Positions 792 to 17,180 are shown, numbered from the stretch's first letter. The stretch: DNA of 21,847 nucleotides from an uncultured virus (IMG/VR IMGVR_UViG_3300031834_000003) (IMGVR_UViG_3300031834_000003); one strand, 5' to 3'. Notes: a model not told the origin generated them from the sequence alone. Numbers and translations: made by a program.

Positions 792-1019
792 TTAGAGTGG
801 AAATGGTACATCACTTGCCCACGCTATGAACGTGAGCAGAAGAACAAAGCCTGCTGTTGCCAGTAGGAACAGGAAGACTGTTCCTGCTAACATTTCTGAC
901 TTAATTGTCTTTTCGTAATCGATGAGCAGTTTGTTATTCACGTTACGTTCAATCATGAGACGTTTCTTTCCCAGTTCGTCTAAGCTTTTATAAAGCTCAT
1001 CACCCACATCAATGTTCAT
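792..1019 (-). CDS. Hypothetical protein with C-terminal transmembrane helix
   Basis: 75-aa ORF, AAGGAG RBS, hydrophobic C-terminal segment. Confidence 0.75.
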   Translation of the reverse strand: MNIDVGDELYKSLDELGKKRLMIERNVNNKLLIDYEKTIKSEMLAGTVFLFLLATAGFVLLLTFIAWASDVPFPL

Positions 1020-1038: not shown

Positions 1039-1515
1039 TTATTCGCTTGGGCATATTGGGTTACTTTCTCTCTATGGCTCGCTCTCTGTCATTGGTTTAC
1101 TTCAACGATTTGGCTCGCTCTTTCCATTTGGGTTACTCTCGACTTATGGCTCGCTTTTGATATTTGGGTTACTTCTTTGACATGGCTCGCTTTTCTGCAT
1201 TGTGTTACTTATGTATAGTGGCTCGCTTGAATAGACTGGGTTATTTCTTTCTCTTGGCTCGCTTTCCTTTTATGGTTTACTTGAATATATAGGCTCGCTT
1301 GCTTTCCCTGGTTTGCTTGAGGCGTGTGGCTCGCTTTCCTTTCGTGGGTTACTCAACCAAAATGGCTCGCTTATCAGTGATGGTTTACTTTCCTCATTTG
1401 GCTCGCTCATCTATCTTGGTTTACTTGCATAATTTGGCTCGCTACCCTTTTTTGGATTTCTCAATACTTGTGGCTCGCTCTCGTAAACTGGTTTTCTTCT
1501 ATTCGATGGCTGACC
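1039..1515 (-). ncRNA. TIGR-type array: 13 units of 36 nt (9-nt edge repeat, 9-nt spacer, 9-nt loop repeat, 9-nt spacer)
   Basis: Plus-strand TGGCTCGCT recurs every 36 nt from 1075 to 1471 (AGGCTCGCT at 1291; degenerate copies at 1039 and 1507). A second repeat, TGGKTTACT, sits exactly 18 nt out of phase. The intervening 9-mers are all different. Confidence 0.93.
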
Positions 1516-2188
1516 AGCCAAAATCTTCTGGTAGATATATATGCGTATGCCCTAAATGCTCATGAACATAAGGTGCACGAATTGGTAATCCTTCAATCTG
1601 GCGCCACACTAACCAAAGATGTGATAACCACATTTTTACCATTCGACCTGTAGCCGCACGATGTATATGCAATGGAGTCCAATCACGACCCTCGGTATAA
1701 TACTCTCGACTAGAGTCGTAAATAGCACGATATGGACTGTTGCATTTTAGGAAACTTCCTGCTATTAGAAAGCAGGTTGAGTGAAGGCGGGCATTATAAG
1801 GTAAAGGAACTCCTGAGGTTGGTTTATCTCGCTTACCATTTGCATCCATGCCATAGCCTGCATACTTCCATAGAGCGCTGATAGTATTTGCTCTGTGAAT
1901 ATCAACCACACAAACTACCTTAGCAGCCAGAATTCGTCCAATTCCTTTGACTTCAATCATGCGCTCAATTATTTCAATCCCCTTAGTTGCATTTGCAATG
2001 TCCACATCCAATTCGCTTTCTAACTCATCGAAACGAGCTAACCAGCGGTTCAGTATTTCTACTGTACCATTGGAAGGGACATCAACTCCTCGTGAGATTG
2101 CATCGAGGCGATTAGAAAATCCAATTCTGTTTTTCTGTATTGCTCTATCGCGTAGGTCCACTAGTGCTCTTAGAATGTTTTCGTCCAT
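1499..2188 (-). CDS. tasA: TIGR-associated Nop-domain protein without nuclease domain (TasA-like; IS110/IS116-type RNA-binding domain)
   Basis: N-terminal coiled coil (IQKNRIGFSNRL), then VKGIGRILAAKVV, ISALWKYAGYG, PYNARL, SPYRAIYD and HIHRAA..RMVKMWLSHLW. Only 229 aa, no RuvC/DEDD or HNH domain visible, and it abuts the 36-nt array. Confidence 0.88.
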   Translation of the reverse strand: MDENILRALVDLRDRAIQKNRIGFSNRLDAISRGVDVPSNGTVEILNRWLARFDELESELDVDIANATKGIEIIERMIEVKGIGRILAAKVVCVVDIHRANTISALWKYAGYGMDANGKRDKPTSGVPLPYNARLHSTCFLIAGSFLKCNSPYRAIYDSSREYYTEGRDWTPLHIHRAATGRMVKMWLSHLWLVWRQIEGLPIRAPYVHEHLGHTHIYLPEDFGWSAIE

Positions 2189-2208
2189 GTTTTCTCCTTA
2201 ATACTATT

Positions 2209-2421
2209 TTATACCTGTTTTTCCATATTCTCATCATCTTCCCCTAGGAAAAACTTAGTAAATTCTGAGCGCTGAGCTTTCATAATTACCCCATTGCCAT
2301 TACAAACATTACAGCCACCAGTGCCAGGATATTTAGGACCGGTGGCTGTACCTTTACATGCTGGGCAAATTACTTCAATGCTTCGAGGATTGCTAGAAGT
2401 ATCCATAGAGGTACTACGCAA
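2209..2421 (-). CDS. Small DnaJ-type Cys-rich Zn-finger protein (start uncertain)
   Basis: CPACKGT and CNVCNGNG (CxxCxGxG-like) motifs. Confidence 0.65.
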   Translation of the reverse strand: MRSTSMDTSSNPRSIEVICPACKGTATGPKYPGTGGCNVCNGNGVIMKAQRSEFTKFFLGEDDENMEKQV

Positions 2422-7485: not shown

Positions 7486-7683
7486 GGGAAGCATCCCCCG
7501 TACTTTCGTGAGCTCATCAGGGGGGACCCCCTACTACCCTCGCACATGCAGAGTAGCGGCTCATGAGTAGGCTATGGGAGGGGGGGGGTGGGAAACTCTA
7601 TATATAGTCGTGCAGAGATACGTTACACCTTCTTAAATAGTGGGGGGATGAAATGGTGAGATAATATAGGAAAGGAGAGAGAC

Positions 7684-7875
7684 ATGAACAGATGCGGGTA
7701 TTGTGGAAAAGAATTCAATAATCAGCTATTCATATTCAGTATAGGGGATAGGAGATATCATCCGCAGTGTTGGGGGGTAGTAATGGATAGGCTCAGCGGT
7801 CTTATAGAGAAGCTTGAATTGAGTGATGATGAATTCGAGAAGTGGCTTAAGGAGGATGAGCATGGACGTACTTAA
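7684..7875 (+). CDS. Small Zn-finger-like protein
   Basis: CGYC...HPQC and AAGGAG RBS. Confidence 0.75.
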   Translation: MNRCGYCGKEFNNQLFIFSIGDRRYHPQCWGVVMDRLSGLIEKLELSDDEFEKWLKEDEHGRT

Positions 7876-9613: not shown

Positions 9614-10231
9614 CTACTCTGGGAAACTTACCTGGGTATTTCTTGGGATATAACGACCCCGAGCTTGCTTGATGCTTCCTTCCTTTATCATGTTTTTCAT
9701 GATGTATAGAACCACCGAGGTGCTGGACACCTCGCACATCTCCATAACGTCTCTGACTGTAGGCGGGACTTGATGGAGAGTATAGAAGTCACGCATCTTC
9801 CTCAGGATTAAGTCATGGCTGTATTTAGACATTGTTTTTCTCTCAAAGTTTTCATAGAACTGGTTCCAGAAGGATGTAGTAGAGTTACCTATCATCTCGC
9901 AGATTACCTCCTGGTCTTCTATTAGGTCTAAACTTATAGCATAGACGTAGTTCATGATTACATGTTGAATTTCATGACTTACAGTTCCTGAACCAAACTT
10001 GTTTATCACGAGGTGGATATCAGCAAATTTCTTGGGAAGGCTAATGAATGCCTCGTTGTCTTTTAGTTTGATTCTATAGGGATTGACATGCGTATATCCC
10101 CAACAGTCCTTACAACCAGTAACCAGGCGCCGCATACTTTCAATATCTTTCCAGATGAATGTAGTGAAGTAGATTGGCGGGTCAAACTCCACTTTCCATG
10201 TTTTCAGGATTTCTGGATGATGGTTATGCAT
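9614..10231 (-). CDS. HExxH-motif domain fused in frame to a LexA-type winged-HTH DNA-binding domain
   Basis: SHEIQHV in the N-half, and FYTLHQVPPTVRDVMEMCEVSSTSVV..MKNMIKEG in the C-terminal 72 aa. Confidence 0.75.
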   Translation of the reverse strand: MHNHHPEILKTWKVEFDPPIYFTTFIWKDIESMRRLVTGCKDCWGYTHVNPYRIKLKDNEAFISLPKKFADIHLVINKFGSGTVSHEIQHVIMNYVYAISLDLIEDQEVICEMIGNSTTSFWNQFYENFERKTMSKYSHDLILRKMRDFYTLHQVPPTVRDVMEMCEVSSTSVVLYIMKNMIKEGSIKQARGRYIPRNTQVSFPE

Positions 10232-13051: not shown

Positions 13052-13780
13052 ATGGACTCTGTAATGTGGTTGGCTATTGGGATTCCACTAGCATTGATGG
13101 CTGCGCTATTCATTCGAACATACCGTCGAGGGGGCAAGATTGGTCTAGAGCATATCTCTACCATGATTACGGTTTGTGTTCTTGGTGCTTTGGCTTTTGT
13201 ACTATATAAGGCTGAAGTAATCAACTGGATAACGACATATGAATCCGTAACCGCTATGGCTGGTACCACTATGGCTTATGGGACTAACTGGCCTAAGGTT
13301 TTAGCTGACCTAGTAGTAATTCTCGATATTGCGTCTCTTGTGGCAGTTTTTACTCCACAAAGCAAGTTTGCGGATGAACCAATCCTGGTCAAGACCATTG
13401 TATCCTTGTGGGCTATCTCTGTAATAGCTGATATGTTTGGGACATGGTACTTTGCTGCTCTCCAGCAACAGAGCGGTACGGTTCGAGCACCCGCAAGCAT
13501 TTCAGCATACACATGGATATTCCCACTCGCAATAACTATCCTGATTACTGGGGTACAGGTTGGAATACTCCGTGTCTTTGGTTTAGTGCTGGAAATGGCA
13601 ATAAATGGCAGGCTCACTACTTCATTACGTAAAGCCAGTTCTAATTATTTCCCACCTGTCAAGTCTAAGCCCATATCGTTTGACAGTTCTCCTGGTATGA
13701 GTGCAGCTGAACGGCATGGACACTCAAACGCAGACTTCTTGCAAAAGATGGGAAATAACAATCGAGAGAAGGTAGCTTGA
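13052..13780 (+). CDS. Multi-pass membrane protein
   Basis: About 5 hydrophobic segments, AAGGAG RBS. Confidence 0.75.
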   Translation: MDSVMWLAIGIPLALMAALFIRTYRRGGKIGLEHISTMITVCVLGALAFVLYKAEVINWITTYESVTAMAGTTMAYGTNWPKVLADLVVILDIASLVAVFTPQSKFADEPILVKTIVSLWAISVIADMFGTWYFAALQQQSGTVRAPASISAYTWIFPLAITILITGVQVGILRVFGLVLEMAINGRLTTSLRKASSNYFPPVKSKPISFDSSPGMSAAERHGHSNADFLQKMGNNNREKVA

Positions 13781-14064
13781 GAGTTATAGACAAGTCTGTT
13801 ATACATGATGTGCATCAGAGAGATGGTCAATGCCTTTATGGAAGTTGGAAAAGAGACCCTCACTGTATTGGCTATCTCTCGGCACATCATATACAGAAAC
13901 GAAGTCAGATAGGTCCAGATATTGAAAGTAATCTCATAACTCTCTGCATGTTTCATCACGAAATGGCTGAGAAGCATTTGATTACATCGGGAGAGCTTAG
14001 ACATATTCTGAGGGAGTTATATGGCTACTCATACACGGAAGAAGAATTGGGTCAAACATCATAA
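13777..14064 (+). CDS. HNH endonuclease
   Basis: RDGQC...C...AHHIQKRSQ.G.D..SNLITLCMFHH. Confidence 0.88.
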   Translation: MRVIDKSVIHDVHQRDGQCLYGSWKRDPHCIGYLSAHHIQKRSQIGPDIESNLITLCMFHHEMAEKHLITSGELRHILRELYGYSYTEEELGQTS

Positions 14065-16529: not shown

Positions 16530-16738
16530 AACGCATAATAATTGATATGGCAGAAAATGGTTTTATTGCCTTTGACAATTCGGGAAGTTCTGGAACTTTC
16601 GTTTTTAACGAGGAAGAGCAGTTATTTGAATATATTAGGAAGTTACACGATGAATATCTCGATTTGACAGGTGTAACTATATCGGATGAAGTAATGAAAC
16701 GCAGACTTAAAGAAAACATGCAAGATAAAAATGCCTAA
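16526..16738 (+). CDS. Hypothetical protein
   Basis: 70 aa, ATGA overlap, GGAGG RBS. Confidence 0.7.
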   Translation: MKRIIIDMAENGFIAFDNSGSSGTFVFNEEEQLFEYIRKLHDEYLDLTGVTISDEVMKRRLKENMQDKNA

Positions 16739-17180
16739 TGGTAAAAGTCATACTATAGCAACTTTCGCTACGCATGGAGCCGTTATAGCTCTTATGCTTT
16801 ATTACTATCGCATTTTTCTTGCACAAGAATTATTCGGGATATCCATTGGGTTCCTTATTACTCTCTATATCAATCCAGACATGGACTTGCGTAGAAGGTT
16901 TCCTAGACAGAGACCAATTGAATGGTTGCCTTGGCTTTTTACCTGGCCTTACTCTCGCATTACTTACCATCGTTCCTTATTGTCCCATGGACCTGTTATA
17001 GGTACAGCATTCCGTATTTTTTATATCTGCGCACCCATTTGGGTGCTTTTTTATTTTGCTAAGATAGACATCTCCCCTGTATATCCCATACTTCCCTGGG
17101 TTGCCCTAGGAATGGTGATTTCAGATACAATCCATGTGATATTAGACATAACAGTAACATCGGTGCGGAGGTCGTTATGA
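16731..17180 (+). CDS. DUF2227-like membrane metal-binding protein / putative hydrolase
   Basis: MPNGKSH, PDMD, HRSLLSHGPVIGT and SDTIH..LD motifs. Confidence 0.82.
   Translation: MPNGKSHTIATFATHGAVIALMLYYYRIFLAQELFGISIGFLITLYINPDMDLRRRFPRQRPIEWLPWLFTWPYSRITYHRSLLSHGPVIGTAFRIFYICAPIWVLFYFAKIDISPVYPILPWVALGMVISDTIHVILDITVTSVRRSL

Follow-up and report, generated by a model that had tools for sequence, protein, structure and literature searches.

A dual-repeat TIGR-TasA system with a nuclease-free Nop protein and a 13-unit array in an uncultured phage

The locus described here is a genuine and canonical dual-repeat TIGR-TasA system carried by a phage. It consists of a gene, tasA, for a nuclease-free protein made of a coiled coil and a Nop domain, and an adjoining array of 13 units of 36 nt, and it lies in a stretch of 21,847 nucleotides from an uncultured virus (IMG/VR IMGVR_UViG_3300031834_000003), which we call the window. 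A TIGR-Tas identity had been proposed in the original prediction, and the family of the protein, its fold, the grammar of the array and its strand all fit a TasA of the solo-Nop kind. That the locus works by the guide-RNA mechanism set out below is, in our judgement, probable. The TIGR-Tas family was published in 2025 (Faure et al., PMC12045711), and a subsequent study has reported 6,685 arrays and shown RNA-guided repression by TasA (Xu et al. 2026, 10.64898/2026.09.09.750476); with thousands of loci already catalogued, one clean phage example changes little in itself.

The TasA protein

The tasA gene occupies 1499..2188 on the minus strand, where a protein of 229 amino acids had been claimed beside the array, and its reading frame is intact. 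The product matches the NCBIfam equivalog NF052498 ('TIGR-Tas system RNA-guided endonuclease') with 174.5 bits against a cutoff of 100, along the entire profile (1-215 of 215), whereas the IS110 model NF033542 gives 16.8 bits against a cutoff of 140. Its sole match in Pfam is Transposase_20, at 15.6 bits and below the cutoff of 21.3, and in PHROGs it belongs with phrog_4285, named 'transposase' and filed under integration and excision (E 5.5e-35). Sequence search of the PDB aligned residues 76-221 to 174-319 of TaTasR (9mty; E 1.7e-22) and residues 6-226 to 71-308 of SpTasH (21kl; E 1.5e-19).

An AlphaFold2 model built on 33 relatives has a pLDDT of 93.8, and Foldseek matches it best to TasH (9w04_B, TMq 0.88), followed by TasR (9mty_B, 0.77) and then by IS621 (8wt9_C, 0.64). 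In the predicted model and the fold search, two long N-terminal helices (3-32 and 42-68) correspond to the coiled coil of TasH and TasR. The structure prediction and profile comparison that had been proposed as a check thus recover a Nop fold and a TIGR-Tas profile above its cutoff, with the IS110 model far below its own.

The N-terminus of TasH is an HNH domain (Faure et al. 2025, PMC12045711), and since the alignment of residues 6-226 starts at residue 71 of TasH, TasA represents the part of TasH that lies behind that domain. No HNH, RuvC or DEDD domain was found in TasA with Pfam, and the alignment to the non-nuclease part of TasH leaves no room for one; the protein had been described as devoid of RuvC and HNH, and so it is. 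Two of its residues, Y207 and H214, align to Y289 and H296 of SpTasH, and across 33 sequences the conservation of both is 90% or higher. In SpTasH this tyrosine and histidine are described as a metal-independent catalytic pair that cuts pre-tigRNA (PMC13421893), and Xu et al. (10.64898/2026.09.09.750476) report that dual-repeat systems conserve this pair, which stem-loop systems lack. All residues that are invariant in the family alignment are kept, the window protein being itself the reference row of that alignment.

Array architecture and spacer variation

The array (1044..1511, minus strand) consists of 13 units in exact 36-nt register, with starts, when registered on AGCC, at 1511, 1475 and onward to 1079, and an end at 1044. 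Each unit is composed of AGCCA, a spacer A of 9 nt, a loop repeat AG-N4-CCA, a spacer B of 9 nt and AGCG; in full, the edge repeat is AGCGAGCCA. Periods of 36 and 72 are detected at 1055-1443 by Tandem Repeats Finder. The pattern CCA-N9-AG-N4-CCA-N9-AG is matched 19 times, always on the minus strand, whereas 100 shuffles give 0.05 matches on average. The unit number, period and strand given by the original prediction are therefore borne out, and our reading of all 13 spacer pairs (26 spacers) is identical to the one it gave. Its loop consensus, AGTAAMCCA, holds in eight of the 13 units and is one or two letters off in units 1, 2, 6, 8 and 9; its unit start, AGCCA, fails in unit 7, which begins AGCCT. 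The array had also been placed directly 3' of the gene, and it does adjoin tasA on the same strand, but unit 1 begins 13 nt within the coding sequence.

Edge and loop repeats alike carry a box C before the spacers and a box D after them, with letter frequencies across the 26 repeats of A 0.96, G 0.96 ... C 0.96, C 1.00, A 0.96. The boxes are intact in 23 of these repeats, and units 7, 8 and 9 have one damaged box each: on direct reading of the sequence, the edge box C of unit 7 (1260..1295, minus) is CCT, the loop box D of unit 8 (1224..1259, minus) is AA and not AG, and the loop box C of unit 9 (1188..1223, minus) is ACA and not CCA. Both ends of the array are truncated. Unit 1 (1476..1511, minus) has an edge repeat truncated at the 5' end and overlaps, with this repeat and part of spacer A, the last codons of tasA and its stop codon, a TAG (1501-1499) that falls within spacer A, and the last unit, unit 13 (1044..1079, minus), ends in a 3'-truncated edge repeat in which AGCG is followed by A. 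Because of the damaged boxes in units 7-9, and of the coding sequence that constrains unit 1, the number of working guides may be below 13.

The gap within the edge repeat is CGAG in 12 units and TCAG, with a G-U, in the truncated first edge; the loop gaps are TAAC in six cases and TAAA in four, plus others. The end letters of CGAG are complementary, which provides an extra pair and agrees with the published edge-phase rule that a 4-nt edge gap must have complementary ends (Xu et al. 2026 preprint, 10.64898/2026.09.09.750476); since the edge gap never varies, this complementarity comes without support from covariation. Loops of TasR arrays are described as A-rich and variable (Faure et al. 2025, PMC12045711). 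The precursor RNA of the array has no stable fold (z +0.29), and dual-repeat arrays have been reported to lack a stable precursor fold (Faure et al. 2025, PMC12045711). No terminator-like site was found 3' of the array and no clear promoter flanks it.

The last letter of the spacers is far from free. Position 9 is a purine in 25 of the 26 half-units of the window array; for 13 close loci the share is 93% (246 half-units) and for other loci 94% (697 half-units; 943 in total), and the preference for A or for G differs between loci or lineages. Equal letters at position 9 of spacers A and B occur in 216 of 354 pooled cases, where 162 are expected, and within loci in 203 where 190.4 are expected; covariation of the two positions as an overlap between half-sites was considered and rejected, since the excess is nearly gone within loci and is read as lineage preference. 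Judged from these letter counts, position 9 seems to belong to box D, as an extension that differs between lineages, more than to the freely varying letters of the guide. In a large clade there may accordingly be 16 base pairs that are freely read, on either side of a purine-pyrimidine step fixed at the centre; for SpTIGR, Faure et al. (PMC12045711) give 16 variable letters per guide. The word 'purine' is absent from the main text of the preprint by Xu et al. (10.64898/2026.09.09.750476). Spacer positions 1-8 are themselves skewed, with A at 0.40 and C at 0.13 against a background on the same strand of 0.28 and 0.23.

An apparent variant of the array comes from one metagenome run, X9, in which a contig of 466 nt with a depth of 4.1 matches 816-1264. 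Its changes are clustered in spacer A (1138-1146) of unit 11 (1116..1151, minus) and at loop position 1132, with identical flanks; at its loose end the end of unit 6 is joined to unit 8, and unit 7 is missing. Two further runs, X5 and X8, gave contigs that show no difference from the window wherever they cover the array. The X9 variant is a single contig of low depth and may be an error. That it records the loss or gain of a unit and the replacement of half a guide between samples, and that the array grammar is at the same time slightly tighter than published, is possible as a joint proposition, and we hold it only tentatively. If both the variant and the position-9 rule are true, a series of sediments could show guides of a TIGR array being gained and swapped, which is an open question in the field; the occurrence of this phage in many sediment metagenomes, with at least one apparent array variant, offers a natural series for following guide turnover.

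Related loci and phage setting

A protein search returned 164 relatives of TasA, and the best 120 of these are 198-307 aa long and 45-65% identical, with one more at 99%. When viral contigs were searched with the single TasA protein no close relative was found; an alignment was needed as the query, and this gave a set of 78 viral and eight genome loci (n=86, 1.3 Mb). In the DNA beside the closest relatives the edge repeat is again AGCGAGCCA and the loop repeats are rich in A, with wholly different spacers, and the arrays lie either upstream or downstream of tas, always on the tas strand. Among 87 sources (the window and the 86 loci), a simple detector found box-type chains on the tas strand in 43 and on the opposite strand in none. 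CGAG is the commonest or joint commonest edge gap in 42 of the 43 arrays, and the loop gaps are A-rich and variable. Besides tas, the window genes found in any of the 86 loci amount to weak SSB matches and one weak match (42% over 67 aa) between the ORF at 16731-17180 and locus L022; as there are no other shared genes, tas and its array travel as a self-contained module.

Some related loci show arrangements of their own. In L010 (10661-11250) and L011 (3870-4570) a small gene separates the array after tas from a second, short array in a shifted register, a split layout that is absent from the window. In L002, a GCTGCGGC-rich tandem repeat of coding appearance, 2 kb upstream of tas (7547-7845), gave a period-36 signal of 0.80; we considered it as a TIGR array and rejected it as an unrelated tandem repeat.

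In the window, tasA is preceded at 5 nt from its ATG by a ribosome-binding site, AAGGAG (2194..2199, minus), and the gene directly upstream (2209..2421, minus) stops at 2209, 21 nt before tasA, which places tasA inside an operon. This upstream gene encodes 70 aa with two CxxCxGxG-type motifs and has sub-cutoff matches to the DnaJ central domain and to Anti-TRAP; on these motifs its product weakly resembles a DnaJ-type zinc finger, and not a nuclease, and it was not found beside tas in the relatives. On the other side of the array, the next gene (792..1019, minus) encodes 75 aa without a family match; because its ATG stands 24 nt past the array end and it has an AAGGAG site of its own, the array is embedded in a polycistronic minus-strand unit. 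Between this gene and the SSB gene sits a tRNA-His with anticodon GTG (621-692, minus; ARAGORN, and 66.5 bits with the Rfam tRNA model), which overlaps the first codons of the longest SSB ORF (112-678). The SSB domain match begins only at residue 54, so that the true start of SSB is probably further in.

That the system is encoded by a phage, as had been claimed, is supported by the gene content of the window, which has a G+C content of 44.4% and carries genes for SSB, a holin, a small HNH protein, a weakly matched terminase large subunit, a portal and a scaffold-like protein. A comparison of the window with the deposited phage collection gave no match, and the record closest to it, G001, an 8-kb piece of the same phage, lacks tas. 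The phage recurs in 19 sediment-metagenome runs, all of the DNA type, nine of which contain at least half of the sampled words. Adjoining a switch in gene strand, a 205-aa protein (9614-10231, minus) has a weak match to a LexA-type DNA-binding domain; a repressor role is possible for it, and would point to a temperate lifestyle. The Chloroflexota host that had been suggested is not clearly supported: among cellular homologues the closest, with 50% identity, comes from Ornatilinea apprima, but others are in MAGs of Gammaproteobacteria, Nomurabacteria and Saccharibacteria.

Mechanism, targets and alternatives

The closest counterpart in architecture is FpTIGR-TasA of Flavonifractor plautii (PMC12045711), which we compare by its description. 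It too is a solo, nuclease-free coiled-coil and Nop protein with a 36-nt unit composed of an edge repeat, a 9-nt spacer A, a loop repeat and a 9-nt spacer B, and in both systems a box C, CCA, precedes the spacers and a two-letter box D ending in G follows them. Residence in a phage is a further point of likeness. The window system differs in that unit 1 overlaps the end of the coding sequence and in that the array is without a terminator. Its box D is AG, whereas TasR arrays are described with UG (Faure et al., PMC12045711).

SpTasH of Salicola phage CGphi29 (PDB 9w03, 9w04 and 21kl; PMC13421893) shares the fold, the tyrosine and histidine pair, a dual-repeat array and the phage origin, but it has an N-terminal HNH domain and cuts both strands, whereas the window TasA is without the first ~70 residues and without any nuclease. 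With TaTasR (9mty; PMC12045711) the Nop C-terminal domain is shared, and the model of its tigRNA fits the window array, with its box C/D pair, the additional pair of the edge repeat and a loop rich in A; TaTasR, however, carries a RuvC domain at its N-terminus and leaves 8-nt 3' overhangs at its breaks, and the window protein has no RuvC. A more distant likeness exists to the bridge-RNA recombinases of the IS110/IS621 group and to Nop5 of box C/D snoRNPs, which share the Nop-type RNA-binding fold and, as Faure et al. (PMC12045711) point out, a two-part guide logic; the window system lacks the DEDD recombinase domain, the single bridge RNA and the fibrillarin partner of these systems.

The mechanism that we propose starts from what is observed at this locus, namely the array, the family and fold of a protein that has no nuclease domain and keeps the dyad, and the strand and operon in which the two lie. 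The tasA gene and the array would share a minus-strand transcript, in an operon, early or of the replication module, that continues to the 75-aa gene, tRNA-His and SSB. A dimer of TasA would bind the transcript at the box letters, and Y207 and H214 in its C-terminal part would cut within each edge repeat, giving up to 13 tigRNAs of 36 nt. Each of these would then steer a TasA dimer to an 18-bp DNA site, one strand of which would pair with spacer A, while spacer B would pair with the opposite strand over the adjoining 9 bp; read along one strand, the site would be spacer A and then the reverse complement of spacer B. This order is preferred because of the published C-5 cleavage rule and 8-nt 3' overhangs (Faure et al. 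2025, PMC12045711); the other order would lead to 10-nt 5' overhangs. Having no nuclease, the complex would remain bound, bend the DNA and keep a host gene or a competing mobile element from being transcribed or replicated.

Processing to 36 nt, dimer formation, DNA binding and repression are carried over into this scheme from published relatives. FpTasA, a dual-repeat system, binds 36-nt RNAs (Faure et al. 2025, PMC12045711), and MbTasA binds DNA and represses both reporters and one chromosomal gene (Xu et al., 10.64898/2026.09.09.750476). Binding rather than cutting, which we would expect of the window TasA, agrees with this later work on other TasA proteins by Xu et al. and Guan et al.: MbTasA, dead TasR and PlTasA (Guan et al. 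2026 preprint) are nuclease-free and are described as capable of tigRNA-guided DNA binding and gene silencing, the activity that we propose here. PlTasA and dead TasR have stem-loop guides and no Tyr/His loop, whereas the window system, known from its sequence, is of the dual-repeat type and keeps the loop. As the proven MbTasA and the structurally solved PlTasA either use stem-loop guides or are not stated in those reports to be dual-repeat, repression by a dual-repeat TasA would be an extrapolation. The compact window protein (229 aa), with its intact dyad and 13 natural guides, is a candidate for asking whether dual-repeat TasA represses as stem-loop TasA does.

In searching for target sites we tested both spacer orders and used as controls spacers joined to a wrong partner or reversed. 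In the window with its array masked, the best site has three mismatches, no better than mispaired-spacer controls, and exact 9-nt half-sites number seven, as against seven for reversed spacers; a search of the array itself for self-referential guides gave a best site with five mismatches. The 86 related loci (1.3 Mb) contain no site at zero or one mismatch, and their counts equal those of the controls. Five of the 13 guides (1, 6, 11, 12 and 13) were scanned as exact 18-mers against viral contigs: guides 6, 11 and 13 have no match, guide 1 has one contig, and guide 12 matches four contigs of a single lineage with near-identical flanks, in a gene for a tape-measure protein of 2403 aa. This tape-measure site was considered as a target and is taken as chance, the other 12 guides being not above controls on that 76-kb phage. 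Guide 6 has 13 matches in metagenome contigs, in eight unrelated contexts, and a single match with two mismatches in two Chloroflexota genomes that bear tas relatives; 401 genomes of the phylum of Ornatilinea hold no exact match to it, and two one-mismatch matches, against two for the backwards control. The search for 18-bp sites in both orders, which the original prediction had put forward, thus yielded no site above chance in any collection scanned, in agreement with the published statement that TIGR spacers, being short, match falsely at many sites, and that few natural targets are known.

Several alternatives to foreign-gene repression by a working guide system have to be weighed. The complex of TasA and tigRNA might serve the phage's own DNA transactions, guiding or bending DNA in integration, replication or partition; Faure et al. 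(PMC12045711) raise a bend of nearly 180 degrees, assistance to an integrase and occasional ParB neighbours, and the locus does stand in a replication-type module adjoining SSB. In the 21.8-kb window, which is part of the phage genome, no guide has a site above mispaired controls, however, and exact half-sites are no more frequent than with reversed spacers; neither an integrase nor ParB was seen among the 29 proteins scanned, and we think this use improbable. TasA could instead be a targeting module that recruits a separately made nuclease, in which case targets would be cut. The phage does encode a small HNH protein (13777-14064), but its gene adjoins the terminase gene, 11 kb off and on the opposite strand. 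Packaging-associated HNH proteins typically have such a place beside a terminase. Modularity is a feature of the family, in which TasH has a fused HNH and TasR a fused RuvC (Faure et al., PMC12045711), yet the same authors report no clear protein partner of TasA, and a partner gene is not apparent among the 86 loci, which besides tas have only the weak matches to SSB and, in L022, to the ORF at 16731-17180 in common with the window. A recruited nuclease is hence hardly to be expected.

The locus might also be a decaying relic whose protein or array no longer works, given the damaged box letters in units 7-9, the array that has no terminator and the target searches that found none. This sits poorly with an intact reading frame behind a strong ribosome-binding site, with a protein that keeps every invariant residue of its family (as the reference row), with boxes intact in all but three of the repeats and with X5 and X8 contigs that do not differ from the window where they cover it, and we consider decay very unlikely. 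Most easily dismissed is the reading of the locus as no guide system at all, a fragment of an IS110-type transposase next to an unrelated tandem repeat, to which the PHROGs name, the weak Transposase_20 match and the name 'transposase' given to some relatives could be said to point. It is contradicted by the NF052498 score, above cutoff where the IS110 model falls far short, by the Foldseek matches, by the absence of a DEDD or RuvC domain and by the arrays of the relatives, in which the exact TIGR box grammar and strand recur in otherwise unrelated phages; we regard it as almost certainly wrong. The labels that suggest it persist in public annotation, where PHROGs and some JGI names still call Tas proteins transposases, and could mislead the annotation of phages.
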